Positions 14,420 through 29,559 of a DNA stretch of 64,000 bases are shown one piece after another (positions within the stretch are counted from its first letter, which is position 1; every line of letters begins with the position of its first letter). Source of the DNA: Alphaproteobacteria bacterium (GTDB taxonomy: Bacteria; Pseudomonadota; Alphaproteobacteria; UBA828). The stretch is from contig CBDEFM010000002.1 of assembly GCA_965237415.1 (NCBI GenBank), positions 672,001-736,000 of the forward strand. The letters are read 5' to 3'. The notes under the pieces were generated by a model. It did no database searches and was not told where the DNA came from. It saw nothing but the letters and a program-made list of their open reading frames with translations. A program made the translations under genes and the position numbers.

Positions 14420-17389
14420 GTGTCGCTTCTGTCTTTCCTGCAAGACGATAAGATTTGTCCCGAGCCGGCCTCGGGCGAGCGCGCGCGCGCTGGGCGAGAC
14501 GCCTGGCTGGCGGCGGCGGTTGCACTCGGCGGCGCGGAAGAGTCGTTCGCCAGCGCGCTCGTGGGCGACCGACGCGCCTGCGGCTTCCTCGACGGCATAT
14601 TCGGCAACGCCCCCGCTCTCGGTCGAGCACTGACGCGCGAGCCGGCCCAGCTTCGCGTGGTGGCCGAGCGTGGCCCCGACGACGCGTTCGAGCGCGAGCT
14701 CGACGGGATATCGAGCACGGCCTGCCGCGCCAGTGACCGTCGTGCCCTCACCCAACGGCTCCGGGCGGCCAAGCGGCGGGCATTGCTCACCGTCGCGCTT
14801 GCCGACATCGCCGGCGCCTGGCCGCTGGATAAGGTGGCGGAGTCCCTCACCAGGTTTGCCGATGCCGCAATTGCCGGAGCGCTCGATCATCTGCTTCGGG
14901 ATGCAGCCACGCGGGTCACCCTTGCTCGGGCCGACCGCGATCGGCCCGTATCTGCCTGCGGGTTGACAGTACTCGGTGTCGGCGGGCTCGGCGCTGGCGA
15001 GCTTACCTATTCGAGCGCGCTCAGTCTGTTCGTGCTGTTCGACCCTGAGCGGGCGCAACACCGGGGGCGGGGCGAGCCCACGGAAACCTTGCACCGCCTC
15101 GTTCGCGACCTCGTCTCCCTGCTTGGGGACGGGACCGGCGAGAGCTGCGTGTATCAGACCGATCTGAAATTCAGGCCCAACATGGGCGGGACACCGCTCG
15201 CGCTCTCCACCGCGGCTGCGGAACAGTACTACGAGAGTCACGGGCAGAATTGGGAACGCGCCGCAATGATCAAGGCCCGCCCGGTCGCCGGCGATGCGAC
15301 GGTCGGCGCCGACATGATGGAGCGGCTGCGGCCCTTCATCTGGCGCAAGTATCTCGATTTTGCGGCCATCCAGGATATCCAGTCGATCAAGCGGCAGATC
15401 GCCGCCGAGCCCGGTAGCAGCCGGATCGAAATCGCCGGCCACGACATCGAGCGGGGCCGTGGCGGTATTCGCCAGATCGAACTGTACGCGCAAACGCAGC
15501 AGTTGATCTGGGGCGGCCGGGATGCGTCATTGCGCTCGGGTGTGACCTGCGACGCCCTCCGCGCGCTCGCCGCCGCCGGGCTCACGAACGAAAAGGCGGT
15601 GGATGAGCTGATCGAATCGTACCGCTTCCTCCGCAGGCTCGAGCACCGTCTGGAGATGGTCGACGACCAACCTTCTCTGAAAGTCCCCGACGACGCGGAC
15701 GACCGCACTGCAATCGCCCACCTCATGGGCTTCCGCGACGAGGCCGATTTCGCCGAGGCGCTCCGCGCACACGTGCGATCCGTCGAGGAGCACTACGCCG
15801 CCCTCTTCGAGGATGAGCCGGCGCTCGGCGGCGAGGGCGGCAATCTGGTGTTTACCGGTACCGCCGATGATCCCGACACACTGGCCAGCCTCCTGCGGAT
15901 GGGGTTCGGCGATGCCGCCGCCGTCTCGGCGACGGTGCGCCACTGGCACCATGGCCGAATCATGGCGACCCGCAGCACCCGCGCCAGGGAGCTCCTGACC
16001 GAACTGATGCCGGCGCTCCTTCGCGCGCTGACCAGCACCGCCGACCCCGACTCGGCGTTCCGCAAGCTCAATGAGTTTCTCGGCGGATTGCCCTCCGGTG
16101 TTCAGCCCTTCCTGCTGCTTCACGACAATCCCGGACTTCTCGCCCGGCTGGCCGAGATTCTGGGCAGCGCGCCCCGCATCGCCGAGCATCTGAGCCGCAA
16201 CCCCGATCTACTCGAAGGGCTCATCAGCGGTGATCTTCACCAGCGCCTGCCGAATCGGGACGAGCTCGACGATGACCTTCACCGAGCCCTCGCGCCTGCT
16301 GACGAATTTCAAGCCATCCTCGACGGGGTGAGGCGTTGGCAGCACGTGCGCGAGTTCCAGGTCGGCATGCAGATCCTCCGGGGCGATGTGGCCGCCGACC
16401 AATTGTCCGGCGCTCTGTCGGACATCGCCGATTCGGTGATCGCGGCGTTGCTGCCCCGGATGCAACGGGAATTCGCGAGACGGCACGGCACGGTGCCGGG
16501 CGCGACCTTCGCGGTCCTCGGCTTGGGCAAGCTCGGCAGCCGCGAGATGACCTTCGACAGCGACCTCGATGTGGTCTTCGTCTATGGCGCCCAGGGCGGG
16601 GTGGATGTGCAGTCCGACGGTGCCCAGGGACTTGCGGCGAGCCACTTCTACGCACGCTTCAGCCAACGCCTGACGAATGCCCTCAGCGCGCACACCGCCG
16701 AGGGTCGGCTCTACGAGATCGATACCAGGCTGCGCCCCTCCGGCAGCTCGGGGCCGATTGCCACCGAAGCCGCCGCCTTCCGCCGCTACCACGAAGAGAA
16801 CGCTTGGACCTGGGAGCACATGGCGCTGACACGCGCCAGGCCGGTGGCCGGCGACCGTGAGCTCAGCGCGACGGTGATGGACGGGATTCGGGCGGTCCTC
16901 TGCGCGCCGCGCGATACCGATACGCTGCTCGCCGACGTCGCCTCGATGCGCGAACGGGTCGACAACGAACGCCGGACCGAGAACAGGTGGCGCCTCAAGC
17001 ATGTGCGGGGCGGCGTTCTCGATCTCGAGTTCATCGCCCAGTACCACCTGCTGCGCCACGCCGCGCGGCACCCGTCGATTCTCGTTCAGTCGACGCAGTC
17101 GGTCTATCGGCGGCTGGGAGAAGCCGGCATTCTCGATGCCGACGACGCGGGCGAGCTCGCCGACACGGCTGCCTTTCTCCAACGTCTCCAGGGCCTGCTC
17201 AGGCTCACCGTCGGCACCAACCGGGACGTGGACCGCTTCACGGCGGGTGTGCGGGAGACACTGGCGCGGGCGATGGGAGTCGAAGACTTCGCCGCCCTTG
17301 AGACCAGGGTCCATGCCGTCCAGGATCGCATCCGCGCCGCCTATCATCGCCTTATCGCGGCGCCTGCCGCAAAGCTTAACAGAGAGTGA
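14420..17389 (+). CDS. glnE: Glutamine synthetase adenylyltransferase/adenylyl-removing enzyme, N-terminal active site degenerate
   Basis: Two-domain layout: YYESHGQNWERAAMIKARP, LRPFIWRKYLDF, then LGKLGSREMTFDSDLD, LYEIDTRLRPSG, AWTWEHMALTRAR, GGVLDLEF. Confidence 0.92.
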   Translation: MSLLSFLQDDKICPEPASGERARAGRDAWLAAAVALGGAEESFASALVGDRRACGFLDGIFGNAPALGRALTREPAQLRVVAERGPDDAFERELDGISSTACRASDRRALTQRLRAAKRRALLTVALADIAGAWPLDKVAESLTRFADAAIAGALDHLLRDAATRVTLARADRDRPVSACGLTVLGVGGLGAGELTYSSALSLFVLFDPERAQHRGRGEPTETLHRLVRDLVSLLGDGTGESCVYQTDLKFRPNMGGTPLALSTAAAEQYYESHGQNWERAAMIKARPVAGDATVGADMMERLRPFIWRKYLDFAAIQDIQSIKRQIAAEPGSSRIEIAGHDIERGRGGIRQIELYAQTQQLIWGGRDASLRSGVTCDALRALAAAGLTNEKAVDELIESYRFLRRLEHRLEMVDDQPSLKVPDDADDRTAIAHLMGFRDEADFAEALRAHVRSVEEHYAALFEDEPALGGEGGNLVFTGTADDPDTLASLLRMGFGDAAAVSATVRHWHHGRIMATRSTRARELLTELMPALLRALTSTADPDSAFRKLNEFLGGLPSGVQPFLLLHDNPGLLARLAEILGSAPRIAEHLSRNPDLLEGLISGDLHQRLPNRDELDDDLHRALAPADEFQAILDGVRRWQHVREFQVGMQILRGDVAADQLSGALSDIADSVIAALLPRMQREFARRHGTVPGATFAVLGLGKLGSREMTFDSDLDVVFVYGAQGGVDVQSDGAQGLAASHFYARFSQRLTNALSAHTAEGRLYEIDTRLRPSGSSGPIATEAAAFRRYHEENAWTWEHMALTRARPVAGDRELSATVMDGIRAVLCAPRDTDTLLADVASMRERVDNERRTENRWRLKHVRGGVLDLEFIAQYHLLRHAARHPSILVQSTQSVYRRLGEAGILDADDAGELADTAAFLQRLQGLLRLTVGTNRDVDRFTAGVRETLARAMGVEDFAALETRVHAVQDRIRAAYHRLIAAPAAKLNRE

Positions 17390-17402
17390 GGGGAGACCCA
17401 GT

Positions 17403-17887
17403 ATGACGACGGTATCGACGCCGGCAGCCCGGCGCCGGGGTTCACGGCGCCCACCAACGACGGCGGCTCGCTGAACCTCGACCGCCTGCGCGGCAAGGCG
17501 GTGGTGCTCTATTTCTACCCGCGCGACGACACCCCCGGCTGCACGCGGGAAGCGCAGGAGTTCACCGAAGCTCTGGCCGAGTTCGCGAGGGCCGGTGCGG
17601 AGATCGTCGGCGTCTCCAAGGACTCCGCCGCCAAGCACGACAAGTTCCGTGCGAAGTACGGCCTCCCCTTCACCCTCGTCTCGGATGCCGAGGGCGACAT
17701 CTGCGAGCGTTACGGCGTCTGGGTCGAGAAGAAGAACTACGGCAAGACCTACATGGGCATCGAGCGTTCGACCTTTTTGATCGACGCGGACGGGAGCGTC
17801 AGCAAGGTCTGGCGCAAGGTGAAGGTCGCGGGCCATGTCGATGCGGTGTTAGGGGCGGTAAAGGACTTGAATGCCGGTGATGGCTGA
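17403..17887 (+). CDS. bcp: Peroxiredoxin Bcp/PrxQ with an apparent 1-nt frameshift just after the start codon
   Basis: VLYFYPRDDTPGCTREA and GIERSTFLID. The homologous frame extends upstream (GIDAGSPAPGFTAP...RGKAVV), but the RBS-preceded ATG at 17403 is one base out of frame with it. Confidence 0.85.
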
Positions 17888-18331: not shown

Positions 18332-18425
18332 GTCATGCCCGGACTTGTTCCGGGCATCTCCCTCCGCCGGGCCCAGTCGGTCGCTGAGCGAGTGCGTGGA
18401 TGGCCGGAACGAGTCCGGCCATGAC
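18332..18425. repeat. REP-like double-palindrome intergenic element of alphaproteobacterial type
   Basis: GTCATGCCCGGACTTGTTCCGGGCATC ... GATGGCCGGAACGAGTCCGGCCATGAC: two hairpins in inverted arrangement, between convergent genes. Confidence 0.75.
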
Positions 18426-18461
18426 GCGGCGGGGGTACCCCGCGACGTCGGATGCGCCGAG

Positions 18462-18704
18462 TCAGCCCCCCTTGAAAGGGCGAAAAAGGCTGATCGTGTC
18501 GTCGGTCGAGAGCGGCGATTCGGGCCACTGATCGCGGGGGACGGCCTCGCCGTTCACCATGGCGAGCAGGGCGGGGTCGCCGTCCACGCCGAGCCCGGAG
18601 AGCGCGTCCGCGACGTTGGTTCCCGCCTCCAGATCGAGGCTGCGGCTCTTTGCGCTACCGAATTGGGGGAGCTCGATTGCGATGAGCTCCACCGTCACCT
18701 TCAT
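18462..18704 (-). CDS. MoaD/ThiS-family sulfur carrier protein
   Basis: 80 aa, VNGE motif, C-terminal GG. Overlaps the AOR stop by 4 nt. Confidence 0.85.
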   Translation of the reverse strand: MKVTVELIAIELPQFGSAKSRSLDLEAGTNVADALSGLGVDGDPALLAMVNGEAVPRDQWPESPLSTDDTISLFRPFKGG

Positions 18705-20530
18705 GCGAGGCCGAGCCGCTGCCTTGTCTCCGCCGTCGGCCGTCCGTCCGTCGTCCAGCCGCGCAGCGCGTAATACTGCGGCAGCATCGTGTCGAGCTCG
18801 CAGACCTTGCCCTTGCCCGAGCCGCTCTTCGCCGCCTCCTTGAGGATGCGCTGAGGCAGCGTGTCGTCGGCGGCGGTCATGCCGGCGTCGAGGTTGAACT
18901 GGCGCTCCATGTTCCAGATGCGCTCGCCGGTCTCGTTCAGCCGGTCCACGGTCCAGCTGCCCTCGCAGGCGGCATCGACCAGGTTGGCGACTTCGTCGAG
19001 ACCCCAGATCATCATCGGGAAGGCGCAGATGCCGACGGAATCGATGGCCGCGTTCGAATCCTGGCTGTCCTTCACGATCTTGGCCTTGCCGTCAAGCTTG
19101 CCGCCGGAGAAGTCGTCCTCATAAGGGTCGGCGCGCAGGTGGCAGGCGCCCCGGTTGCTGGTGGCGTAGGCGAGGCCCATCCCCTGCATCGAGCGGCCGT
19201 CGTAGCCGGGGAACTCCTGCCCCTTGGCGACCATGGCGAACTCGGGGCGGCCGTACTTCTCGCAGAGCCGCTTGGCGCCGAGCCCGAGATCCTTGCCGAA
19301 GCCTGTGCCCGTGCCGGCCTCCTCCGCCGCCCTGCAGAGCGCCTCGGCCGAGCCGAAGGTGTAGGCGATGCCGCCGGTCTCGGCGTCGCTAATGGCGCCG
19401 GTCTCGTAGAGCTCCATCGCGGCTGCAACGGTGGCCCCGAAGGAGATCGGGTCCATCCCGTCCTCGTTGCAGACGAAGTTGGCGAAGGTCGCGGCCTCGA
19501 TGTCGTCGACGCCCACCATGGGGCCGAGGGAGTAGGCCGATTCGTATTCCAGCCCGCCGCTGACCTTCTTGTAGCGATCCCGATCGCGGATCGCGAAATG
19601 CGAGGGGTCCATCTTGGAGGCGCGCTGGCAGCCGATGGTGCAGGCGAAACAGGCGCGGTTCGCGACCAGATTGGCGGCGCCGTCGGAGCGGCGCACCTTC
19701 ATCATCGCGTCGGGACCGAGATTGCCGGTACCCTCGAACTGCACGTCCTGGTTGTTGCGGGTCGGCAGGCTGCCGAAGGCCTGGGTGACGTCGATCATCG
19801 AGAGCGTGCCGGTGCGCGCGAGGTCGGCGCGGGTCTGGCTCTCGGAGAGCGCGGCGGCGGCGTGCTCTACGGCCTCGGCGAAGGCGTCAGTGTCGTCCAC
19901 CGCGACGCCCCGCGTGCCGCGCACGGCAATCGCCTTGAGGTTCTTGGACCCCATCACGGCGCCGACGCCGGAGCGCCCGGCGGCCCGGTCGAGGTCGTTC
20001 ATCACGCAGGCGTAGCGGTTGAGGGTCTCGCCGGCCCGGCCGATCGAGGCGATCTTGATCGCGCCGTCCTGATGGCGCGCCTTGATCATCGGCTCGGTAT
20101 CCCAGACCGACTTGCCCCAGACGAAGCCCTCCGCGTCGATGAGCTCGGCGTGGTCGTCCTTGATGTAGAGGTAGACGGGGCGCGGCGAGCGGCCTTCGCA
20201 GATCACCATGTCCCAGCCCGCGAGCTTCAACTCGGCGCCGAAGTAGCCGCCCGAGTTCGAGCAGGCGACGGCGTTGGTCAGCGCTCCCTTGGTGACGACC
20301 GTGTAGCGGCCTCCGGTCGGCGCCGTGGTCCCGGTCAGCGGGCCGGTCGCGAAGATCAGCTTGTTCTCGGGCGAGAGCGGATCCGCCTTCGGGTCCATCT
20401 CCTCCGCCAGGTACTTGGTGGCAAGGCCCCTGCTGCCCAGATAGGTCTGCGCCCACTCCATGTTGAGCGCCTCTTCCGTGCAGGTGCCGGCGGTGAGGTC
20501 AGCCCGTAACAGTCTGCCTTGCCAAGCCAT
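18701..20530 (-). CDS. Aldehyde:ferredoxin oxidoreductase family (tungstopterin) catalytic subunit
   Basis: SNSGGYFGAELKLAG, RAAGRSGVGAVMGSKNLKAI, CFACTIGC, GLEYE, RGACH, DSVGIC, YYALRGW. Confidence 0.9.
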   Translation of the reverse strand: MAWQGRLLRADLTAGTCTEEALNMEWAQTYLGSRGLATKYLAEEMDPKADPLSPENKLIFATGPLTGTTAPTGGRYTVVTKGALTNAVACSNSGGYFGAELKLAGWDMVICEGRSPRPVYLYIKDDHAELIDAEGFVWGKSVWDTEPMIKARHQDGAIKIASIGRAGETLNRYACVMNDLDRAAGRSGVGAVMGSKNLKAIAVRGTRGVAVDDTDAFAEAVEHAAAALSESQTRADLARTGTLSMIDVTQAFGSLPTRNNQDVQFEGTGNLGPDAMMKVRRSDGAANLVANRACFACTIGCQRASKMDPSHFAIRDRDRYKKVSGGLEYESAYSLGPMVGVDDIEAATFANFVCNEDGMDPISFGATVAAAMELYETGAISDAETGGIAYTFGSAEALCRAAEEAGTGTGFGKDLGLGAKRLCEKYGRPEFAMVAKGQEFPGYDGRSMQGMGLAYATSNRGACHLRADPYEDDFSGGKLDGKAKIVKDSQDSNAAIDSVGICAFPMMIWGLDEVANLVDAACEGSWTVDRLNETGERIWNMERQFNLDAGMTAADDTLPQRILKEAAKSGSGKGKVCELDTMLPQYYALRGWTTDGRPTAETRQRLGLA

Positions 20531-20648
20531 AACGTCCTCCGCGCTGTCGATCGGCCGAGCCGGGCCGCGTGATGGGAAACGTACTCTTGGATTCGCCGTT
20601 CGCCAAGGGGTGGGCAGGCTTGAGAGCCCGGAGAGGCGGTAGCGGGGA

Positions 20649-21935
20649 TTACGCAGCCGGGCGGTGGACGGGCACCACGTAGGGGCCTTCGGGGATCACG
20701 GCAACCCGTCGGTCGCCATGCCGGGCAGTGCTTTCCGCCACCGATCCTGCGAGCGACTCGGTCATGCGGACTCCGGTGAGCGCCCGGTCCTCGGGCGCGA
20801 GACCCTCGGTGAAGAGATGGACCGTCCCGGCCCGCATGGGGCGGAGTTGCATCTCGGTCTGCCATTCGTCGATCGCGGCGTGGGTCTTGCCGTTGATCTC
20901 GTCGAGGAAATGCTCTGGTCCATTCTCCACCAGGCGGCGCTGGGCATCGGCGTAGTGAGCCGAGCCCAGACCTTCGGAGCATGCCGACGCAACGATGAGA
21001 TCGCCGCCCGGCACCAGAATTTCCAGCGGGCCGACCATGCCCTTGACGGTCTGATAGTAGGTCGCATCCAGCGGATGGCCCGCGGCGCTGGTCAGCACGG
21101 TCTTGAACCGTTCGCCCACGGGAACGGTGGCGAACCCCTCGGCGAAGCGGACCGCCTCCTCGTGGCTCGCCACGACCTCGCCGTAGTTGAGGAAGGCGAC
21201 GCGGCGCTCGTCGTCGATGACGCTGTTGACGGCGCGGGCTCCGCCGATCATCGCCATAATCTCCAGCTGCTCCTCGTGCAGCGGATTTCCCTCCAGCACG
21301 CAGTTGGTGCAGTTGGGATGCTCCATGAAGCGGGCGCTGTGGAAGGTGGTGACGGTCTCGGCATGGGCGACGCCGGGCGCGATCACCTTGCGCCCGCCCG
21401 ACCAGCCGGCCATGAAGTGCGGCTCCACCAGGCCAGTGGCGATGCGCAGATCGGCTTCGACGAAGCGCCGGTCGAGCCGTACCACCGTGCCCCGCCGGGT
21501 CGTTCCGATCAGCACGTGGTCTGCGTCCTCCCGGGCAAAATGGTTCGCGACGTCCACCGTCTCCAGCACCCAGGGATCGCCGACCAGAGCGGCAAGCTCT
21601 TCGCCCTCGTTGGGCCGGTGCAGCCCGGTCGCGATCAGCACCGTGATCTGCTCAGGCGCCAGCCCGGCGCCGAGCAGAGTGCGGATGAGCGGCGGCAGGA
21701 TCACGCCGTTGGGCACCGGGCGCGTGAAGTCGCAGATAAGGATGCAGACGCGCTTGGCACGCGCGGCCTCCTCCGCAAGCAGCGGGCAAGCCACGGGCCG
21801 GGCGAGAGCCTCTTCCATGGCCTGCGCCGGATCGGCGAGCAGCGGCATCGCCTTCTTGGCAATCACGGTGACGTCGAGCTCGTCGGGCAGATCGACCGCC
21901 CGCAGGCCCCGGCCGTAGTTCAGATGAACGCGCAT
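20649..21935 (-). CDS. Nickel-pincer-nucleotide-dependent racemase/epimerase, LarA family
   Basis: DFTRP, ATGLHR, NH, EPHFMAGWSGGRK, PGVA, FH, GHPLDATYYQTVKG. Confidence 0.85.
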   Translation of the reverse strand: MRVHLNYGRGLRAVDLPDELDVTVIAKKAMPLLADPAQAMEEALARPVACPLLAEEAARAKRVCILICDFTRPVPNGVILPPLIRTLLGAGLAPEQITVLIATGLHRPNEGEELAALVGDPWVLETVDVANHFAREDADHVLIGTTRRGTVVRLDRRFVEADLRIATGLVEPHFMAGWSGGRKVIAPGVAHAETVTTFHSARFMEHPNCTNCVLEGNPLHEEQLEIMAMIGGARAVNSVIDDERRVAFLNYGEVVASHEEAVRFAEGFATVPVGERFKTVLTSAAGHPLDATYYQTVKGMVGPLEILVPGGDLIVASACSEGLGSAHYADAQRRLVENGPEHFLDEINGKTHAAIDEWQTEMQLRPMRAGTVHLFTEGLAPEDRALTGVRMTESLAGSVAESTARHGDRRVAVIPEGPYVVPVHRPAA

Positions 21936-21984
21936 GCGATCGGCCTAAGGCGCAAGAGATGCAACGGCAGTCTTCATCGTCACC

Positions 21985-24504
21985 TCACCGCGTCCCGGCG
22001 AGGGGAATTCCGGTTGCGTGCGCAGTTGCAATAGTCAGCGCGCGGAGGTCTTCGGGCTCGACGTTCTGAAGGTTTGTCTTGCCGGTGCAGCGCGCCATCA
22101 TCGACGCCTCGGACGCGGTCGCCTTGATGATGTTGACGGTGCCTGTCGTGCGGTCCTCGTCGCTGCGGTCTGCCGAGAACGCGAGCTCGTGGGCGCCGGT
22201 GATGGCACCGCCTGCAGCAAGCCCCACGGCGACACCCAGCACCACCGCGACCGTGCCGAGCGCGATCACCTTGGCCGCATCGGTGCCCGAGCGTACGCCG
22301 CCGAAGTAGACGAGGTCGATCTCCTCCTCGCGGTTGAGACGGCGCAGGATCGCCACCGCATCCCGCAGGATCGTGAGATCGGGCGCACCCCTGAGCTCCG
22401 CCCAGGGTGCGCCGAGCCCGGCGCTGCCGTCCAGCAGCAGCATGCCGAAGCCCGCATCGAGCGTATGGGGGATCGCCTCTTCCAGAACCTCTGGCGAGGA
22501 GACCGAAAGCCCCAGCACCTGGCCTTCGGCCGCGGCGGTCGCGTCGACGGGCGTGAAGCGGTGGCCGAGAGCGTAGATCAGCCCCGCCGCGTCCGCGCTC
22601 GGCGCGATCTGCCCCGGCAGCACGAGCTGGAACCAGCGCGCGCCTTCACCCACGGGCTGCACCCCGAGATAGCTCGCATCCGCCTCCGCGATGCCGCGCC
22701 CGACCGCAGCCCGCACCTCCGCCGGCGCGTCGTCGAAGCCCGTCACCATGAAGGGCAGCGCGAGATCGGTGCCGCCCACCGTGGTGCCGATCCGGCAGGC
22801 CTCGCGGTAGGGATCGATCACAAGGCGCGAGAGGTTCGCGGGCAGGAAGGCGAGATCGTCCAGAACGCCGGGGAGCTCTTCCGGGAAGGGGTCGTCCCGC
22901 TCGCCCATGCGCTTCTCCAGCATCGCCTTCTGACCCGCCGTATCGCCCGGCGTGGTGCGGGCCATCACGAAGATGTCCTCACGGTGCCCCACTGCATAGT
23001 CGGCGGAGCCGGTCTCGGCATCGCAGCGGTAGCACCGTGCCGCCTCCTTGCGCGCGGACTCCCAGCCGTAGGTGGTCTCGATCTCGGGGAACGTCACAGG
23101 GTCCTTGCCGAGGCCGAGGAAATCGGGGTGCTGAACCGGCAGAAGCTCCCACTCCAGGTCCTGCGCCACCGGCACCCGCTGCGTGCGGTAAGGTGTCTTG
23201 TAAGGCAGCGGGTCGGCGCGGCCCTCCAGATACGCCTTCACGTAGTAGGCAACCCGCTGGCCGTGGTTCATCGCCATCACGATGGTCGACCCGCCGAAGG
23301 CCCCGTCGCCCGCCGCGAACACCATGGGATCGTTCGTGCGCATGCCTTCCCACGCGGTCCGCACTCGGTCCGTCTGCATCAATCCCCGCCGGTGGAGGTC
23401 GTCGCAGAGACCCTCCTGCCCCACCGAGGCGATCACCATGCCGCACGCGATGTCGTGCTCCGTGCCCGGCACGTTCACCGGCGCGCGCCGGCCGGACTCG
23501 TCCGGGTCTCCCAGCGTGGTCTCAACGCAGCGCACGGCGAGCCCGTTGCCCTGCGGCACGATGGCGGTCTGCTGGGTGTGATAGATGAACTCGATCCCCT
23601 CCTCGATCGCGCCCTCGAGCTCGATCTTGCGCGCCGGGATCTCCGCCGGGCCCCGCCGGTAGATCACCTTGACGTGCTTGCAGCCCGGCAGGCGCCTCGC
23701 GACCCGGCAGGCGTCCATCGCCACGTCGCCGCCGCCGATCACCACAACCGTCTCCGGCATCTCGGGCCGGGCGCCCTCGTTCACGTCGCGCAGGAACTGC
23801 ACGCCGTCGATCACACTGGTGCGGTCCTCGCCCGGAATGCCCATCTTCTTGCCCCACCACGCACCGATGGCGAGGACTACCGCGTCGTGCCGCTCCTTGA
23901 GATCGTCCAGCGTCACGTCCCGCCCGAGCGCGGTGTCGAGGTGAACCTCCATCCCGGGGCAGCGGCGAGCCATGCGGTCGATATCCTCCTGGATGATCCC
24001 GGGCGGCAGCCGAAACGCAGGAATGCCCCAGATCATCATGCCGCCCAAGCGGTCGGTCATCTCGTAGACGTGCACCTTGTAGCCCGCGACCGAGAGGTCT
24101 TGCGCCGCCGTCAGGCCCGCAGGGCCCGAGCCCACCACCGCAACGCTCTGCTCATGGCGCACCGGCACCGGCGGCGGGTCGTAGTCGTGACCCACCTCGT
24201 CCATGACGAAGCGCTTCAGGTTGCGGATCTGCACAGGGCCGTCGGAATCCGTCCGCCGGCACGCCGGCTCGCACGGCGCATCGCACACCCGCCCGCAGAT
24301 CGAACTGAATGGATTGGTCGCCGTGATCGCCTCGAACGCCTCCTCGAAGCGCCGCTCCCAGATATAGGCGATATAGGACGGCGCATCCGTCCCCACCGGG
24401 CAGGCGATCTGGCAGGGCGCCGGCACGAAGTGCGCGTCGTCCGTGTCGTCCGGCAGCTCCGCGAGCAGCTGACCGCCCGCCTCCATCTCCTCCAATATCG
24501 CCAT
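21985..24504 (-). CDS. GltD-like Fe-S/FAD pyridine-nucleotide oxidoreductase fused to a degenerate glutamate-synthase FMN-barrel domain
   Basis: PCQIACP, ICGRVCDAPCEPAC, GSGPAG, GIPAFRLP, GGGDVAMD, EAARCYRC; then LDDLAFLPANLSRLVIDPYREAC...FGGVRSGTDAAKVIALG...MARCTGK. Confidence 0.8.
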   Translation of the reverse strand: MAILEEMEAGGQLLAELPDDTDDAHFVPAPCQIACPVGTDAPSYIAYIWERRFEEAFEAITATNPFSSICGRVCDAPCEPACRRTDSDGPVQIRNLKRFVMDEVGHDYDPPPVPVRHEQSVAVVGSGPAGLTAAQDLSVAGYKVHVYEMTDRLGGMMIWGIPAFRLPPGIIQEDIDRMARRCPGMEVHLDTALGRDVTLDDLKERHDAVVLAIGAWWGKKMGIPGEDRTSVIDGVQFLRDVNEGARPEMPETVVVIGGGDVAMDACRVARRLPGCKHVKVIYRRGPAEIPARKIELEGAIEEGIEFIYHTQQTAIVPQGNGLAVRCVETTLGDPDESGRRAPVNVPGTEHDIACGMVIASVGQEGLCDDLHRRGLMQTDRVRTAWEGMRTNDPMVFAAGDGAFGGSTIVMAMNHGQRVAYYVKAYLEGRADPLPYKTPYRTQRVPVAQDLEWELLPVQHPDFLGLGKDPVTFPEIETTYGWESARKEAARCYRCDAETGSADYAVGHREDIFVMARTTPGDTAGQKAMLEKRMGERDDPFPEELPGVLDDLAFLPANLSRLVIDPYREACRIGTTVGGTDLALPFMVTGFDDAPAEVRAAVGRGIAEADASYLGVQPVGEGARWFQLVLPGQIAPSADAAGLIYALGHRFTPVDATAAAEGQVLGLSVSSPEVLEEAIPHTLDAGFGMLLLDGSAGLGAPWAELRGAPDLTILRDAVAILRRLNREEEIDLVYFGGVRSGTDAAKVIALGTVAVVLGVAVGLAAGGAITGAHELAFSADRSDEDRTTGTVNIIKATASEASMMARCTGKTNLQNVEPEDLRALTIATAHATGIPLAGTR

Positions 24505-24507
24505 CGC

Positions 24508-26466
24508 TCAGCCCATCCTGCTGAGGAGCGCCTGCTCGCGCTCGCGGTATTCCGGCGCATAGGGCAGGCCCGTCATCTCCGCCGCGTCCCGGGTCACCGC
24601 AACCAGGTCGTTCCGGTTCAGCCCGGTCGTGCTCCCATAACCCAGCGCCTGGGTCAGTGCCGCGATCTGCCAGCGCACGCCTTCCAGGTAGCGGTGGATG
24701 TTGCGGGCCTCCGCCACCGGGTTGTAGCGGCGCTCGTGCTCGGGGTCCTGGGTCGCGATCCCCGTCACGCACTGCCCCACGTGGCATTGCATGCAGGCGA
24801 TGCAGCCGCCGGCGATGATCACCGCCGTTCCCATCGCCACCGCATCGGCGCCGAGGCAGAGCCCCTTCACCGCGTCGATCCCGTCCCGGATGCCGCCCAT
24901 GAGCACGAGCTGCATCTTGCCGAGGCCGTCGACCTCCCCCAGCGCCTCGATCGCCTGGGTGATGGCGGCAAGCGTGGGCACCCCCACGTGCTCCATCACC
25001 TCCGCACCGCCCGCACCCGTCGAGCCCTGCATCCCGTCGAGCTCAACGAAGTCGAAGCCGTCCTTGTAGGCGATCTTGATATCGTCGCGCACCCGGCCCG
25101 CGCCGAGCTTCACGCTCACCGGGATGCGGTAGCCTGTCGCCTCCCGGAACTCCTCCACCTTGATGACCAGATCGTCGGCGCCGAGGATGTCCGGGTGGCG
25201 GGAGGGCGAGCGCAGGTCGATGCCCTCCGGGATCCCCCGGATGGTGGCAAGCTCCTTAGTCACCTTCTTCGCCATGAGCTGGCCGCCGAAGCCCGGCTTC
25301 GCCCCCTGGCTGATATAGATTTCGAGCCCGTCCGCCCGGTTCATGTCGTGGATGTTCCAGCCGAGCCGGCCGCCCAGACACTGGAAGACAAGCTGCTCCG
25401 CCGCACCCCGCTGGGCGTCGCTCATGCCGCCTTCGCCGGTATTCTCGGCGATCCCCGCCATGCTCGACGCCATGCCCACCGCCTGCTTGGTCGAGCGCGA
25501 GAGCGCGCCGTAGCTCATCGGCGCGACCATCACCGGCATGGAGAGCTTGAGCGCCTTCGCTCCGTTCAGACCCCCGATCTCGGTCCGCATTTCCACCGCC
25601 GTCACCGGGTCGCCTGCCGTGCCCGCGCCCGAGAGGTCGCGCTTGAAGGCGAGGTCCGAGAGGTGCGGCAACGTGCGCGCGCCGCCATAGCCCCGCACCC
25701 GGTAGCGGCCGATCTGGGCCTTGACGTAGACGTCCTCCTGCACTTTCGGGTTCCAGTAATCCGACGCGCCCGAGAAGGTGAAGAAGGGAATGCTGCGCAC
25801 CTGCTGCTCGCTGGTCGCGTAGCGCAGACGCTTTCCGGCGTTCACGATCTTCTGGAAGCCGCCCTTGTAGGCGATCTCGTGACGGTCCAGGAACGCGCGG
25901 ATGTCGTCGACCTCGGCCTCCTCGATATCGGTCAGCTGCGCGTCGGAGCCGAGAGAGCGCACCGCGCCGCCGACATAAATGTCACCGGCCGCCATATCCT
26001 CGCCCACACGCTCGCCGGATTCGCCCAGGATGATGATGCGCCCGCCGTACATCATGTAACCGGCCATGAAGTTGGCGTTGCCGACGCAGCAGAGCGTCCC
26101 CGCCTTCATCACCTGGCCCGCACGCGAGCCCACGTTGCCGTGCACCACGATCTCCACGCCACGGATCGCAACGCCCGCGATCGCGCCCGCGTTGCCGCGC
26201 ACCGTCACCGTTCCGGCGTACATGTTGTCGCCGAGACCCCAGCCGGCATTGTTGTCGATCTCGAAGCGTGCCTTGTCCGCAAGTCCTGCGCAGAAGTAGC
26301 CCGCAGAGCCCCGGACATGCACCCGCACCGGGTGGATCAGTCCGACGCCGATATGATGGCGCGCGTCGGGGTTGAGGACCTCGATGTCCTCTCCCTTCGC
26401 TCCCCAGTCGCGGATTTGCTCGTTGGCGTGGCGGACGGAAACCTGTCCTAGGTCAATCTGGACCAT
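24508..26466 (-). CDS. GXGXG (GltB domain III / GlxC-MgsB-like) plus FMN-binding glutamate synthase (GlxD-MgsC-like) fusion
   Basis: N-terminal beta-helix GSAGYFCAG..GNAG..GSRAGQVMKAG; C-terminal APMSYGALS, NTGEGGM, SQGAKPGFGGQL, SPSRHPD, DGMQGSTGA, CIACMQCHVGQCVTGIATQDP. Confidence 0.85.
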   Translation of the reverse strand: MVQIDLGQVSVRHANEQIRDWGAKGEDIEVLNPDARHHIGVGLIHPVRVHVRGSAGYFCAGLADKARFEIDNNAGWGLGDNMYAGTVTVRGNAGAIAGVAIRGVEIVVHGNVGSRAGQVMKAGTLCCVGNANFMAGYMMYGGRIIILGESGERVGEDMAAGDIYVGGAVRSLGSDAQLTDIEEAEVDDIRAFLDRHEIAYKGGFQKIVNAGKRLRYATSEQQVRSIPFFTFSGASDYWNPKVQEDVYVKAQIGRYRVRGYGGARTLPHLSDLAFKRDLSGAGTAGDPVTAVEMRTEIGGLNGAKALKLSMPVMVAPMSYGALSRSTKQAVGMASSMAGIAENTGEGGMSDAQRGAAEQLVFQCLGGRLGWNIHDMNRADGLEIYISQGAKPGFGGQLMAKKVTKELATIRGIPEGIDLRSPSRHPDILGADDLVIKVEEFREATGYRIPVSVKLGAGRVRDDIKIAYKDGFDFVELDGMQGSTGAGGAEVMEHVGVPTLAAITQAIEALGEVDGLGKMQLVLMGGIRDGIDAVKGLCLGADAVAMGTAVIIAGGCIACMQCHVGQCVTGIATQDPEHERRYNPVAEARNIHRYLEGVRWQIAALTQALGYGSTTGLNRNDLVAVTRDAAEMTGLPYAPEYREREQALLSRMG

Positions 26467-27389
26467 GTGCCATAGCTCCCCGGCGGCGGTTCCCTCGTGT
26501 CAAGCGCGCGGCCCGGGAAGAGGCGGTTCAGCGAAACCTCCTCCGAGGCGATCGCGATCAGGTCGTCGTTCTCGTACATGATCATCGGCTTCGCCGCGAG
26601 ATTGTCCTTGGCGTAGCCGATCTCATCCTTGGTCGAGACCAGGAACGAGAACGTGCCGTCGAGATCGTCGATCGAGGTCTTCAGCGCATCCTCGAGAAGA
26701 ATCGCGTTGGCGAGCTTGTCTGCCAGATAGACCGCGATCAGCTCGCTGTCGTTGTCTGTATGGAACCCGAACCCGCGCCGCTCCAGCCGCCGGCGCATCT
26801 TCCAGTAGTTCGTAATCTGGCCGTTGTGCACGATCGCGATGTCGGTGAACCCCGTTGCCCAGAAGGGATGCGCCGCCTCGGGCTTCACCTCGGACTCGGT
26901 CGCAAGCCGCACATGGCCGAGCCCGTGGGTGCCCTGAACCTCGCGCACGTGGAAGATCTCGTCCACATCGTGGGCGCTGCCCACGTCCTTGCGGATATCC
27001 AGGCTCTCCCCGATCGAGATCAGCGTCGCCGCGTGCTCCATGTCGTAGGTCAGCTTCTGCACGTCGCCGGCGAAGCGCACAACGACCCGGTAGCTGTTGC
27101 CCACATGTTCGCCGTCCACGATCTCCGCACCGTGCTCCTCAAGGGTGCTGCGAATATCCGCGATCGCGCCCTCGACGCCACTGTTATGGCCGACGCCATC
27201 GCCCGCGCCGTTCCCCTCCCCCACCAGGAAGCGCAGCCGGAGCTGGCCCGGCTCGGCGTCCTCATAGAGCGCGAACCCGGTCGAATCAGGGCCCCGGTGC
27301 TGGCAGCCGTCCAGCATGTCGATCAGCGCCTGACCCGCCGACAGACCCGTGTCACCGTGCTTGAACATCACGCCCGCTATCCCGCACAT
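26448..27389 (-). CDS. Class II (Ntn) glutamine amidotransferase, GlxB/MgsA-like
   Basis: MCGIAG N-terminal Cys nucleophile, HRGPDSTG, GHVRLATES, AHPF, VHNGQITN, DNDSE, LDGTFS. Confidence 0.88.
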   Translation of the reverse strand: MCGIAGVMFKHGDTGLSAGQALIDMLDGCQHRGPDSTGFALYEDAEPGQLRLRFLVGEGNGAGDGVGHNSGVEGAIADIRSTLEEHGAEIVDGEHVGNSYRVVVRFAGDVQKLTYDMEHAATLISIGESLDIRKDVGSAHDVDEIFHVREVQGTHGLGHVRLATESEVKPEAAHPFWATGFTDIAIVHNGQITNYWKMRRRLERRGFGFHTDNDSELIAVYLADKLANAILLEDALKTSIDDLDGTFSFLVSTKDEIGYAKDNLAAKPMIMYENDDLIAIASEEVSLNRLFPGRALDTREPPPGSYGTWSRLT

Positions 27390-27496
27390 GCGCGTCGTCC
27401 CGTTCTGTCGTCCCGAAAGTGCCCGATCATACCATGAATCAAGGACTCGCAAGCCGAACCTCCGCTATCATGCCCCCAGCCTGAGGAAGATCAGCC

Positions 27497-28396
27497 ATGC
27501 CCCACGCGCAGGCGCCGGACGGGATCAAGCTCTACTACGAGGAGGCCGGGACCGGCCATCCAATGCTCTTCATCCACGAATTCGCTGGCGATCTCCTGAG
27601 TTGGGAGCCGCAGCTCTGCCACTTCGCGCGGCGCTACCGCTGCATCGCCTACAACGCCCGCGGCTATCCCCCCTCGGACGTGCCGGAGGACGCCGACGCC
27701 TACAGCCAGGCCCATGCGGTGGCGGATGCGATCGCCGTCCTCGACCACTTGGGCGTCGAGCGCGCCCATGTGGTGGGCTTGAGCATGGGCGGCTTCGCGA
27801 CCATCCATATCGGCCTGAAACACCCGGACCGCGCCTCGGCACTGGTGGTCGCCGGCTGCGGCTACGGCGCGCCGAAGGATGCCCGCACCGGGTTCCAGCG
27901 CGAGACCCATGCGGTGGCCGACCGCCTGGAGCGCGAGGGAGCAGGCCCGGTGGGTGCCGACTACGCGCTCGGGCCCACGCGGGTGCAGTTCCAGACCAAG
28001 GACCCGCGCGGCTGGGCGACCTTCCGCGACCGCGTGGCGGATCATTCGGCGAAGGGCACGGCCAACACGCTGCGCGGCGTGCAGGCCCGCCGCCCCTCGC
28101 TCTACGATCTGGAGGACGGCCTCGCCGCGCTCACCGTGCCGACGCTGCTGATCACCGGGGACGAAGACGAGCCCTGCCTCGACGCGAACCTCTACCTCAA
28201 GCGCACGATGCCCACGGCCGGCCTGTTGGTGATCCCGAAGTCGGGCCACACCATCAACTTGGAGGAGCCGGACGCCTTCAACCAGGCCTGCGCGGATTTC
28301 TTCGCCCAGGTCGAGAACGGCCGTTGGGAGGCGCGCGATCCGCGCTCGCTCAGCGCCACGTCGATCATCCGGGCCGACGCGGACGAGCGGTCATGA
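27497..28396 (+). CDS. Alpha/beta-fold hydrolase
   Basis: FIHEFAG oxyanion region, GLSMGG nucleophile elbow, GDEDEP, SGHTINLE. Confidence 0.85.
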   Translation: MPHAQAPDGIKLYYEEAGTGHPMLFIHEFAGDLLSWEPQLCHFARRYRCIAYNARGYPPSDVPEDADAYSQAHAVADAIAVLDHLGVERAHVVGLSMGGFATIHIGLKHPDRASALVVAGCGYGAPKDARTGFQRETHAVADRLEREGAGPVGADYALGPTRVQFQTKDPRGWATFRDRVADHSAKGTANTLRGVQARRPSLYDLEDGLAALTVPTLLITGDEDEPCLDANLYLKRTMPTAGLLVIPKSGHTINLEEPDAFNQACADFFAQVENGRWEARDPRSLSATSIIRADADERS

Positions 28397-29559
28397 CAGG
28401 CGAGGAACGCGCACTCGCCCAGGCGCTTCACAGCCTCCTCGCCGAGCTGATCGCGATCCCCTCCGCCACTCCGCCGGGCGACACCAGAGCGATCTGCGAA
28501 GCCGCCGGCGAGCATCTCAAGGCGGCCGGCTATGAGGTCTCCATGCCGACGCGGACCCCGCCGTTCGCTAACCTGGTCGCGCGGCTCGGCGAGGGCTCGC
28601 CCTGCGTGGTGTTCAACGCCCACATCGACACGGTCGGCACCGGCGACCGTGCTGCCTGGCGCACCGACCCCTTCGCCGCAACGATGGAGAAGGGCCGCAT
28701 CTACGGCCTCGGCGCCAACAACTGCAAGGGATCGGCAGCGGTGCATCTCTGGCTCGCGGGCGAAGTCGCGCGCCTGGGCGGGCCTGCGCGGGGGAGCCTG
28801 ATCTTCGTGCTCGCCGGCGACGAGGAACGCCTCGGCCCGGAGGGAACCGCCTTCCTGCGCGAGGAAGGGATCATCGAGCCCGATGCGCTGGTGCTCGGCG
28901 CGCCCACCGAGAACCAGATCATCATCGAGGAACGCGGCGTCCTCTGGCTCGAGATCGAAACCACCGGCCGCGCCGCTCACGGCGGCGATCCACCGGCAGG
29001 CGACAATGCCATCCTCCGCATGGTGCGCCTGCTGGAGAGCCTGCGCACCGAACTGGGGCCGGCACTCGCCACGCGGCGACGGGGCGAAAAGGTCTCGACC
29101 ATGAATTTCGGCACCATCCACGGCGGCGAGAACCCCAACGTGGTCCCCGACCGCTGCACGGCCCGCATCGACCGCCGCTTGCTGCCCGACGAACCGGTCG
29201 AGGAAGCCCAGGCCGAGATGGAGGCTGTGCTGGCCGCCTCGGGCGAGCCTGCGGGGTCCTACTCCGTTCGCCGTCTTGCAGGCACCGACGGCTTCTCCGC
29301 GCCCCTCGACGGTCCCTATGTCTCGGCTCTGACGGCGGCCATCGAGGAGCGTCTGGGAAGGCCGCCAGAGGTGCTCAACGCGCTCGCCGTGAGCGACGGG
29401 CGCTTCTTCGCCCGCGACGGCATCGAGATCGTCAATTTCGGCCCCGGCGACGGCGCCGTGAGCCACGCCGCCAACGAGCACGTGCCGCTCGTCGAGATGG
29501 TGGACGCGGCACTGATCCTCCGCGCCTTCGTGGAGCGTACCCTCGGCTTCGCCGGGTGA
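28393..29559 (+). CDS. M20 (ArgE/DapE-like) amidohydrolase with altered metal ligands
   Basis: NAHIDTV, GRIYGLGANNCKG, GDEE, GRAAHG, GGENPNVVPD, SHAANEH. ATG overlaps the upstream TGA (ATGA). Confidence 0.85.
   Translation: MTGEERALAQALHSLLAELIAIPSATPPGDTRAICEAAGEHLKAAGYEVSMPTRTPPFANLVARLGEGSPCVVFNAHIDTVGTGDRAAWRTDPFAATMEKGRIYGLGANNCKGSAAVHLWLAGEVARLGGPARGSLIFVLAGDEERLGPEGTAFLREEGIIEPDALVLGAPTENQIIIEERGVLWLEIETTGRAAHGGDPPAGDNAILRMVRLLESLRTELGPALATRRRGEKVSTMNFGTIHGGENPNVVPDRCTARIDRRLLPDEPVEEAQAEMEAVLAASGEPAGSYSVRRLAGTDGFSAPLDGPYVSALTAAIEERLGRPPEVLNALAVSDGRFFARDGIEIVNFGPGDGAVSHAANEHVPLVEMVDAALILRAFVERTLGFAG

Follow-up and report, generated by a model that had tools for sequence, protein, structure and literature searches.

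In glutamate synthase (GOGAT; GltBD, EC 1.4.1.13, for example that of Azospirillum brasilense, PDB 6s6s), a single alpha chain of ~1500 aa, GltB, carries an amidotransferase, a central domain, a flavin mononucleotide (FMN) barrel and a GXGXG beta-helix in that order, and a beta subunit, GltD, adds flavin adenine dinucleotide (FAD) and two [4Fe-4S] clusters. The central domain is a shortened barrel that may stem from the FMN barrel, and its origin is debated, according to the available part of a review (PMC8097209). N-methylglutamate synthase (NMGS; MgsABC or GlxBCD, EC 2.1.1.21) has three subunits, encoded in the order amidotransferase, GXGXG protein, FMN barrel, and no pyridine-nucleotide reductase. 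For the Methylobacterium mgsABC-gmaS genes, the accessible text of PMC6237917 proposes that NMGS acts in a GOGAT-like manner on gamma-glutamylmethylamide and 2-oxoglutarate and states that its redox cofactor and true reaction are unknown, and the part of PMC3160333 consulted proposes the SAR11 row glxBCD-glnT-soxBDAG as an N-methylglutamate pathway, with its glutamine synthetase (GS) read as gmaS. Here we describe three genes, A, B and C, at positions 21985-27389 of a 64,000-nt window (the whole stretch of DNA analysed, from contig CBDEFM010000002.1 of an alphaproteobacterial genome, to which all positions refer). We read them, with a probability of roughly 0.55, as encoding one enzyme of the GlxBCD/MgsABC branch that has its own NAD(P)H reductase and whose likeliest amide donor would be gamma-glutamylmethylamide.

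All three genes, and hence every triad feature located below, lie on the minus strand of the G+C-rich window (0.62-0.72). Gene A (26448..27389, 313 aa) encodes a stand-alone class II, N-terminal-nucleophile (Ntn) amidotransferase of the GlxB/MgsA-like type; its open reading frame (ORF) spans 26448..27452, with the true start at the ATG at 27389, giving MCGIAG. Gene B (24508..26466, 652 aa) encodes a GXGXG beta-helix joined to an FMN/Fe-S synthase barrel and is equivalent to GlxC plus GlxD, and gene C (21985..24504, 839 aa) encodes a GltD-like NAD(P)H/FAD/2x[4Fe-4S] reductase followed by a degenerate Glu_synthase barrel. A and B overlap by 19 nt, and 3 nt separate the stop of B from the start of C. 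A first-pass annotation of the window had described three tightly coupled genes, which the ORFs, spacing and Pfam domains bear out; Pfam assigned GATase_6/7 to A, GXGXG and Glu_synthase to B, and Fer4_20 and Pyr_redox_2 to C. A scan of positions 18400-27700 returned no promoter-like and no terminator-like sites (shuffle means 0.8 and 2.9, respectively) and is uninformative on operon limits.

Both proteins that would carry out the chemistry retain their catalytic motifs. Gene A matches GATase_6 at 69 bits and GATase_7 at 64 bits, and GATase_2 (PF00310) was not among its Pfam matches at E ≤ 0.01. Removal of Met from the MCGIAG start exposes Cys1, as expected of a GOGAT-type Cys1 amidotransferase, and an MCG[IV] start is found in 67 of 69 A orthologues. 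In B, the GXGXG domain (25954..26364, residues 35-171; PF01493, 49.4 bits), which also matches a formylmethanofuran dehydrogenase subunit C-like family at 66 bits, precedes the catalytic Glu_synthase barrel (24637..25560, residues 303-610; PF01645, 297.8 bits) with its NTGEGG, QGAKPG and GGIRDGID motifs. A Cys cluster read from the sequence at 24769..24804 (C555-x2-C558-x2-C561-x4-C566) contains the CX5CX4C pattern of GltB (C555/C561/C566) plus an extra C558, whereas GltB has three Cys, and it would bind a [4Fe-4S] rather than a [3Fe-4S] cluster. NTGEGG, QGAKPG and all four Cys are invariant in 12/12 aligned orthologues. The archaeal-type split glutamate synthase has its ferredoxin domain joined to the FMN subunit, with GXGXG and amidotransferase as separate subunits; no Fer4 match was found in B with Pfam.

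A tblastn search with B against plasmid records gave 476 matching records, in 243 of which neighbouring glxC and FMN genes together cover at least 80% of the protein. For example, a Methylobacterium sp. DM1 plasmid carries the row amidotransferase, glxC, FMN protein and glnT, to which A is 36% identical and the two parts of B 32.5% (glxC) and 41% (FMN barrel); identity of B to GltB of its own genome is 31% versus 41% to GlxD-like proteins. Because B is colinear with neighbouring glxC and glxD, we place the system in the GlxBCD/MgsABC branch and read B as a glxC-glxD fusion rather than as part of a rearranged GltB. The label 'reshuffled' used in the first-pass annotation is thus apt in that all GOGAT-type modules occur in a new partition, but not in implying that GltB was rearranged. 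The genome also holds a canonical gltD-gltB pair elsewhere, with GltB in a 1513-codon open frame, and, on contig C1, a split set in the order amidotransferase, GXGXG, FMN barrel that is 42%, 39% and 41% identical to A/B. Before this split GlxBCD-like set (C1:98450-104689; L087) come a GS-like gene with only 27-29% identity to type III GS and a gene of the DAO family, and a gamma-glutamyltranspeptidase gene is close by. The set may represent a further gamma-glutamyl-amine pathway and is not clearly a gmaS-mgs cluster.

Of the described systems, MgsABC/GlxBCD is nearest to the triad in sequence and has the same gene order. The two differ in that GlxC and GlxD are fused in the triad, and in that gene C, with its Fer4_20 and Pyr_redox_2 domains, adds a GltD-type reductase and a second barrel to what is otherwise a three-subunit enzyme. 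With GltBD the triad shares the Ntn amidotransferase, the FMN/Fe-S barrel motifs, the GXGXG domain, a GltD-type FAD/2x[4Fe-4S] subunit and a barrel-like, non-catalytic domain that partners the synthase barrel. Unlike GltBD, however, it consists of three proteins instead of alpha and beta chains, its GXGXG domain stands before the barrel and not after it, its amidotransferase is of the GATase_6/7 and not the GATase_2 type, the first CxxC of GltD has moved behind the flavin domains in C, and the PF04898 central domain is lacking (no Pfam match in A, B or C).

The reductase part of C begins with an Fe-S domain (Fer4_20, 24196..24420, residues 29-103; PF14691, 81.9 bits) that contains C31, C35, C70, C74, C78 and C82, followed by FAD- and NAD(P)H-binding domains (23260..24147, residues 120-415; PF07992, Pyr_redox_2, 107 bits). 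The six Cys align with the final six of the eight Cys in GltD of the same genome (C78, C82, C117, C121, C127 and C131), and the first pair (AARCSQC) is absent from the N-terminus of C. Behind the flavin domains, at 23023..23034, C carries the motif EAARC491-x2-C494 (EAARC491YRC494), which, like the six Cys of the Fer4_20 domain, is invariant in 25/25 sequences. This motif is probably the relocated pair, replacing as putative cluster ligands the two N-terminal Cys of canonical GltD, and both [4Fe-4S] clusters of C are probably complete because of this apparent relocation. C nevertheless falls below curated cut-offs for GltD proper, with 207 versus 448 bits for TIGR01317, 251 versus 483 for TIGR01318 and 392 versus 516 for NF009410. 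Two further Cys, C570 and C806, are probably inherited and not a new metal site, because their motifs also occur in the GlxD-like protein of the same genome.

The C-terminal ~300 residues of C (residues 545-839; 21988..22872) are a real, degenerate Glu_synthase barrel. They keep LDDLxFLPANLSRLVIDPYREAC, the GGxRxGxD phosphate loop (GGVRSGTD) and ARCTGKTNLxNxEPEDL; as the first-pass annotation had noticed, they lack NTGEGG, QGAKPG and the Cys cluster. With Pfam, this tail stays below threshold for both Glu_synthase (16.2 bits versus a cut-off of 20.4; residues 683-765) and FMN_dh, and a diverged family member, P0181, passes Glu_synthase at 46 bits. That annotation had left room for the domain not being a Glu_synthase barrel at all, which an hhalign comparison of a 22-row tail alignment with B speaks against (probability 98.9%, E 3.9e-17, covering B 266-641): the gaps fall at NTGEGG, ISQGAKPG...RSPSRHPD and the Cys cluster of B, and GGVRSGTD (GGIRDGID in B) and the beta-8 stretch are retained. 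Closer still is the stand-alone GlxD-like protein that the genome encodes (E 8.4e-35, 332 columns), and the barrel is GlxD-derived. Homology to the central domain of GltB was considered and discarded: hhalign against the central segment of the genome's own GltB gave a probability of 0.2%, and the earlier description of the barrel as a 'central-domain equivalent' is therefore without backing in sequence. Against the FMN domain of the same GltB the tail gave a weak hhalign match (E 0.0039, 87 columns).

Structure prediction agreed with the assignment of the tail to this class of barrels. The AlphaFold2 model (pLDDT 92.4, pTM 0.91) is an FMN-type TIM barrel that VIA-align superposed on 1fcb_A with Z 22.5 (rmsd 3.0, 251 aligned) and, at rank 11, on the glutamate synthase (GltS) chain 6s6s_A with Z 19.9 (rmsd 3.3, 273 residues aligned, chain range 486-1189). 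The top Foldseek rows from the pdb set were all alpha-hydroxy-acid oxidases (mandelate oxidase) and flavocytochrome b2, and GltS was not among the matches listed; a GltS-type barrel cannot be told from other FMN barrels by its fold alone. In a complex model, B and the dead barrel were predicted to bind, with an ipSAE of 0.78 (a score attained by 58/80 solved complexes and 2/110 mismatched pairs) versus 0.00 for the best control; the runs shared at least 80% of contacts, partner pLDDT was at least 87, and the natural fusions described below agree. The modelled interface takes in the QGAKPG loop of B (385-393) and the GGVRSGTD loop of the tail.

A second, partial copy of the gene C sequence occurs elsewhere in the genome. 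This 1222-bp stretch (C2:3048967-3050187; L088) corresponds to the 3' part of the gene (residues 438-839, that is, linker and dead barrel) at 96.7% nucleotide identity. It lies directly behind two Mutator-family transposase genes and is probably a gene fragment moved by an insertion sequence.

Relatives of C are widespread, and the triad is not a chance arrangement. A protein search with C gave at least 7996 relatives at E 0.001 (8000 candidates scored), a number that includes ordinary GltD-like proteins; among the 120 matches listed, identities were 66-99% and 117 covered 97-100% of the query. Relatives were encoded in 245 stretches of species genomes, so the family is not rare, and the best 80 of these are the genome loci counted here and below. 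A working barrel stands upstream of C in 78/80 loci and A as well in 69/80, with every miss at a contig end. C is 60-98% identical across loci whose record titles name Alpha- and Gammaproteobacteria, Planctomycetota, Latescibacterota and Opitutales metagenome-assembled genomes (MAGs). In a search of plasmids from mostly cultured bacteria, C matched 212 records, none with coverage of at least 80%, and the matches were confined to the GltD part (32-37% identity). Sequence sources give the family proteins generic names only.

Natural fusions tie the dead barrel to the working one. A search with the tail among 1.84 billion representatives found 437 proteins (E ≤ 0.001). Among the best 120 matches of a search with the P0138 tail, 65 had the architecture GXGXG-FMN-barrel (1013-1088 aa), 48 were GltD-barrel proteins and two joined everything as GXGXG-FMN-GltD-barrel (P0290, 1501 aa, 4 members; P0367, 1510 aa, 5 members), the remainder being four partial FMN-barrel proteins and one fragment. 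Another apparent fusion of B and C (P0128, 1486 aa) was not relied on, as it is a singleton on one 7.3-kb contig. The dead barrel thus always travels with a working barrel, with or without a reductase, and hence is a partner of B. The proposal that it tethers the diaphorase may describe part of its function but cannot be its sole role, since 65 of the best 120 matches carry it behind B without GltD.

Proteins of the GXGXG-FMN-dead-barrel type (~1020-1030 aa) contain the same B module and the dead barrel at 45-55% identity, with the barrel fused to B. They are named 'glutamate synthase-related protein' or 'GlxD' in records labelled, for example, Desulfococcus multivorans, Desulfosarcina variabilis and Desulfobacter curvatus and, as far as our searches show, are also uncharacterised. 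The GltD-barrel form, by comparison, occurs in records named Desulfonema ishimotonii and Desulfatitalea alkaliphila. The GltD module is absent in 14/14 metagenome loci of the former type. Ten of the 14 have an amidotransferase gene upstream, the other four beginning within ~420 nt of the GXGXG match, and a GS-like gene (35-37% identical to type III GS) lies directly downstream in 9/9 with enough flank. The electron donor of this GltD-less form (metagenome loci L090-L101, L103, L111, L112) is not evident within the loci.

In the enzyme we propose, A would use its Cys1 to hydrolyse a gamma-glutamyl amide, and the freed amine would pass to the FMN site of B, where it would add to 2-oxoglutarate and the imine would be reduced by FMNH2. 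Electrons would run from NAD(P)H to FAD, through the two [4Fe-4S] clusters of C and on to the Cys4 cluster of B, while the C-terminal barrel of C, a stripped GlxD-type copy, would act as a structural subunit docked to B's working barrel. The likeliest amide donor would be gamma-glutamylmethylamide made by a type III GS (glnT/gmaS), giving N-methylglutamate and glutamate as products; the alternative donor, glutamine, would give two glutamates. We favour a GOGAT-like, NAD(P)H-dependent enzyme of the Mgs branch because gene C would supply the electron donor that PMC6237917 leaves open for NMGS. While the analysis itself yields the domains, homologies, conserved synteny, natural fusions, co-occurrence and a supportive complex model, the cofactors, the path of the electrons, the substrate and the product are inferred.

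A link to methylamine metabolism comes from the type III GS. TIGR03105, the family of glnT/gmaS-type enzymes, scored above cut-off in 33/33 carrier genomes tested (the window's own included) and, in a class sample of 201 genomes, in 10 of the 11 with the barrel (own genome included) versus 25 of the 190 without, although kin genomes are not independent and such counts overstate the co-occurrence. A type III GS lies directly behind C in 14/80 genome loci (12/68 with enough flank) and in 11 of 35 GltD-bearing metagenome loci, and is 68% identical to glnT of DM1. SoxA-like and SoxB-like genes were each found in 7/80 genome loci and an Amt gene in 15/80, and a Sox-like gene was found in 12/80 metagenome loci; in four loci (L024, L025, L027, L037), FolD and SoxB/D/A/G-like genes come next after the type III GS behind C. 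Such a layout has been read as the N-methylglutamate pathway in SAR11 (PMC3160333) and Methylobacterium (PMC6237917). The first-pass annotation had noted that neither gmaS nor mgdABCD is adjacent, which holds for the window but not for its relatives (GS in 14/80, Sox/Mgd-like genes in 7/80). Its suggestion of an N-alkylglutamate synthase is supported by these gene neighbourhoods, while the distinct GOGAT that it also considered is unlikely as a plain replacement, canonical GltB (at least 1500 aa) being present in 32/32 carrier genomes tested. The genome from which the window comes holds an unlinked type III GS (C2:2808593-2809876), around which an ORF listing showed nothing informative, as well as an Amt gene and Sox/Mgd-like copies, the latter at C2:2.906 Mb and C1:0.434 Mb.

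The immediate neighbours of the triad in the window are of other kinds. A LarA-like gene of the lactate racemase family (20649..21935, minus strand; Lar_N 188 and LarA_C 50 bits) begins 49 nt downstream of C, and it follows C in 15/80 genome and 5/80 metagenome loci, making it a lineage-specific companion. Next comes a gene of the aldehyde:ferredoxin oxidoreductase (AFOR) family (18701..20530, minus strand; AFOR_N 256 and AFOR_C 392 bits), which stands beside the triad only in loci where C identity is at least 85%; a second AFOR copy, 59% identical, lies at C2:3463234-3465075. Two minus-strand ORFs further on (15527-16189 and 16208-17836) match no Pfam family and are kept downstream of AFOR in L001, L003-L005, L007 and L009 at 52-88% identity. 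On the other side and divergent from the triad, an alpha/beta hydrolase gene (27497-28396) and an M20 amidohydrolase gene (to 29559) occupy 27497..29559 on the plus strand, followed from 29578 by a Liv-type ATP-binding cassette importer; this block is conserved only in the window's own sub-lineage. In a sister lineage (L014, L015, L017 and L020), a DHA2-type major facilitator superfamily (MFS) transporter gene and a GlpD-like FAD dehydrogenase gene lie downstream of LarA, which fits 2-hydroxy- or 2-oxo-acid handling.

The stretch was present, at least in part, in 20 public sequencing runs from ten studies, seven of the runs being RNA libraries. Contigs from four RNA runs (three studies) cover the genes at 90-99% identity and span the A/B, B/C and C/LarA junctions, a hint of expression. 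Some of the runs are labelled sponge metagenome, and in sponges nitrogen can be drawn from methylated amines. Near relatives of the genome are labelled Alphaproteobacteria or Rhodospirillales MAGs.

Besides the non-independence of kin genomes, several observations weigh against an NMGS-like enzyme fed with gamma-glutamylmethylamide. Classical NMGS, as described, works without a reductase subunit (EC 2.1.1.21). In whole-genome tblastn, the matches to type III GS, Amt and Sox/Mgd-like proteins all fell outside the window, and a type III GS directly behind C is limited to the 14/80 genome loci given above. In the window's lineage, the LarA, AFOR, M20, hydrolase and importer genes may indicate a different substrate. 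Three loci (L037, L051, L067) carry a second GS and a split GlxBC-like set beside A-B-C, and this second set could be the true gmaS-mgs; in the window's own genome, the barrel of the split set is 52% identical to GlxD of DM1, compared with 41% for B. The complex model could reflect a packing of barrels that the predictor had picked up from solved structures. Finally, without a silent control stretch, the RNA-library contigs are a hint of transcription rather than proof, and their depth cannot rank the genes.

The triad could also be a second true glutamate synthase, converting glutamine, 2-oxoglutarate and NAD(P)H into two glutamates in concert with type III GS and Amt, for instance when nitrogen is scarce. 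All GOGAT modules are there, their catalytic motifs intact, and a GltD-type reductase is a hallmark of NADPH-GOGAT in the available text of PMC8097209. The Amt genes (15/80) and the GS genes directly behind C (14/80) would suit this role, as would the NCBIfam name of TIGR03105, glutamate-ammonia ligase, and the lack of Sox/Mgd-like genes in 73/80 loci. We nonetheless consider it unlikely: canonical GltB already exists in 32/32 carrier genomes, because of which the triad is not a replacement and not a housekeeping GOGAT; A, B and the dead barrel are nearest the GlxBCD type and not GltB (41% versus 31% for B); and FolD and Sox/Mgd-like genes follow the type III GS behind C in four loci. The same GS type, moreover, stands in the Methylobacterium cluster of amidotransferase, glxC, FMN protein and glnT, and is read as gmaS in SAR11 in the part of PMC3160333 consulted. 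Rather improbable, in our view, is a special recruitment in the window's own sub-lineage, where the M20 and hydrolase enzymes would open an imported amide or N-acyl compound, A-B-C would join the amine or ammonia so freed to a 2-oxo acid, and the LarA-like racemase, in some relatives with a GlpD-like dehydrogenase, would supply that acid. The block importer-M20-hydrolase / A-B-C-LarA(-AFOR) is conserved in L001-L007, L009, L011 and L022, LarA follows C in the 15 genome and 5 metagenome loci noted above, the MFS transporter and GlpD-like flavoprotein recur in L014, L015, L017 and L020, no terminator-like site separates C from the LarA and AFOR genes, and RNA-library contigs span the C/LarA junction. 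Yet the identity of A, B and C, 60-98% whatever their context, speaks for a single conserved reaction; the hydrolase and importer genes run divergently and are limited to close kin, the genome keeps its unlinked type III GS, Amt and Sox/Mgd-like genes, and the sequence names no substrate.

A last alternative, which we regard as very improbable, concerns the C-terminal barrel alone: it might not be dead but bind FMN or another phosphate ligand as an extra redox or regulatory site, as in dihydropyrimidine dehydrogenase (DPD; PreT-PreA, PDB 1gt8). As in C, a GltD-like domain and then an FMN-fold TIM barrel follow each other in one chain of DPD, according to the available part of PMC8097209, and 1gt8_A aligned with the C barrel at Z 15.0 (19.9-22.5 for the top VIA-align rows). 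The phosphate-binding half of the FMN site (GGVRSGTD and the glycine-rich beta-8 stretch) is conserved, and the 60-98% identity over the whole of C indicates strong constraint. The barrel of DPD, however, carries an active FMN site of the DHODH type with a ferredoxin domain behind it, while that of C is of the Glu_synthase type without the catalytic loops, and Pfam gave no PF01180 or ferredoxin-tail match in C. The NTGEGG, QGAKPG (catalytic Lys loop), beta-5 Lys and GSTGAGG segments are deleted or replaced, there is no Cys cluster, and the Glu_synthase match is below threshold (16.2 bits). A structural subunit of an NAD(P)H-dependent, Mgs-branch synthase therefore remains our preferred reading of this barrel.

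Should that reading hold, the triad would catalyse gamma-glutamylmethylamide + 2-oxoglutarate + NAD(P)H -> N-methylglutamate + glutamate and, with glnT/gmaS, methylamine nitrogen would be assimilated without release of ammonia. For NMGS, whose electron donor is stated to be unknown in the accessible text of PMC6237917, the triad would be a sister enzyme with the donor as a fixed subunit, and the reductive, GOGAT-like reading of NMGS chemistry would become testable with three genes. A duplicated synthase barrel that has lost its chemistry and lines the amine path would be a living example of how a central domain could originate. It would also show clearly how a catalytic barrel can become a structural pseudo-enzyme subunit, a point relevant to the debate on where the GltB central domain came from (PMC8097209, in the part available). 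The metagenome series from B-barrel to B-GltD-barrel to B + GltD-barrel would then record the insertion of the reductase. As a whole, this picture of a reductase-linked NMGS (a 'methylamine GOGAT'), a model for central-domain origin and a recorded reductase insertion is a tentative one that we think possible but doubtful. The review of GltD-like modules covers GltS, DPD, Nfn and AegA, and the term 'N-methylglutamate' is absent from its available text (PMC8097209); in a literature search covering the main text of openly accessible papers, we found no description of this architecture and none that pairs NMGS with a GltD-type subunit.

Other arrangements of glutamate-synthase-like genes were seen along the way. 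In a Rhodospirillales MAG (L067:1101-16154), three such sets stand in a row, with further A/B-like genes (35-42% identity) on either side of A-B-C. The window's own genome also encodes a stand-alone Glu_synthase-family protein (C2:2670403-2672052; L083), whose N-terminal extension looks Rieske-like by eye.

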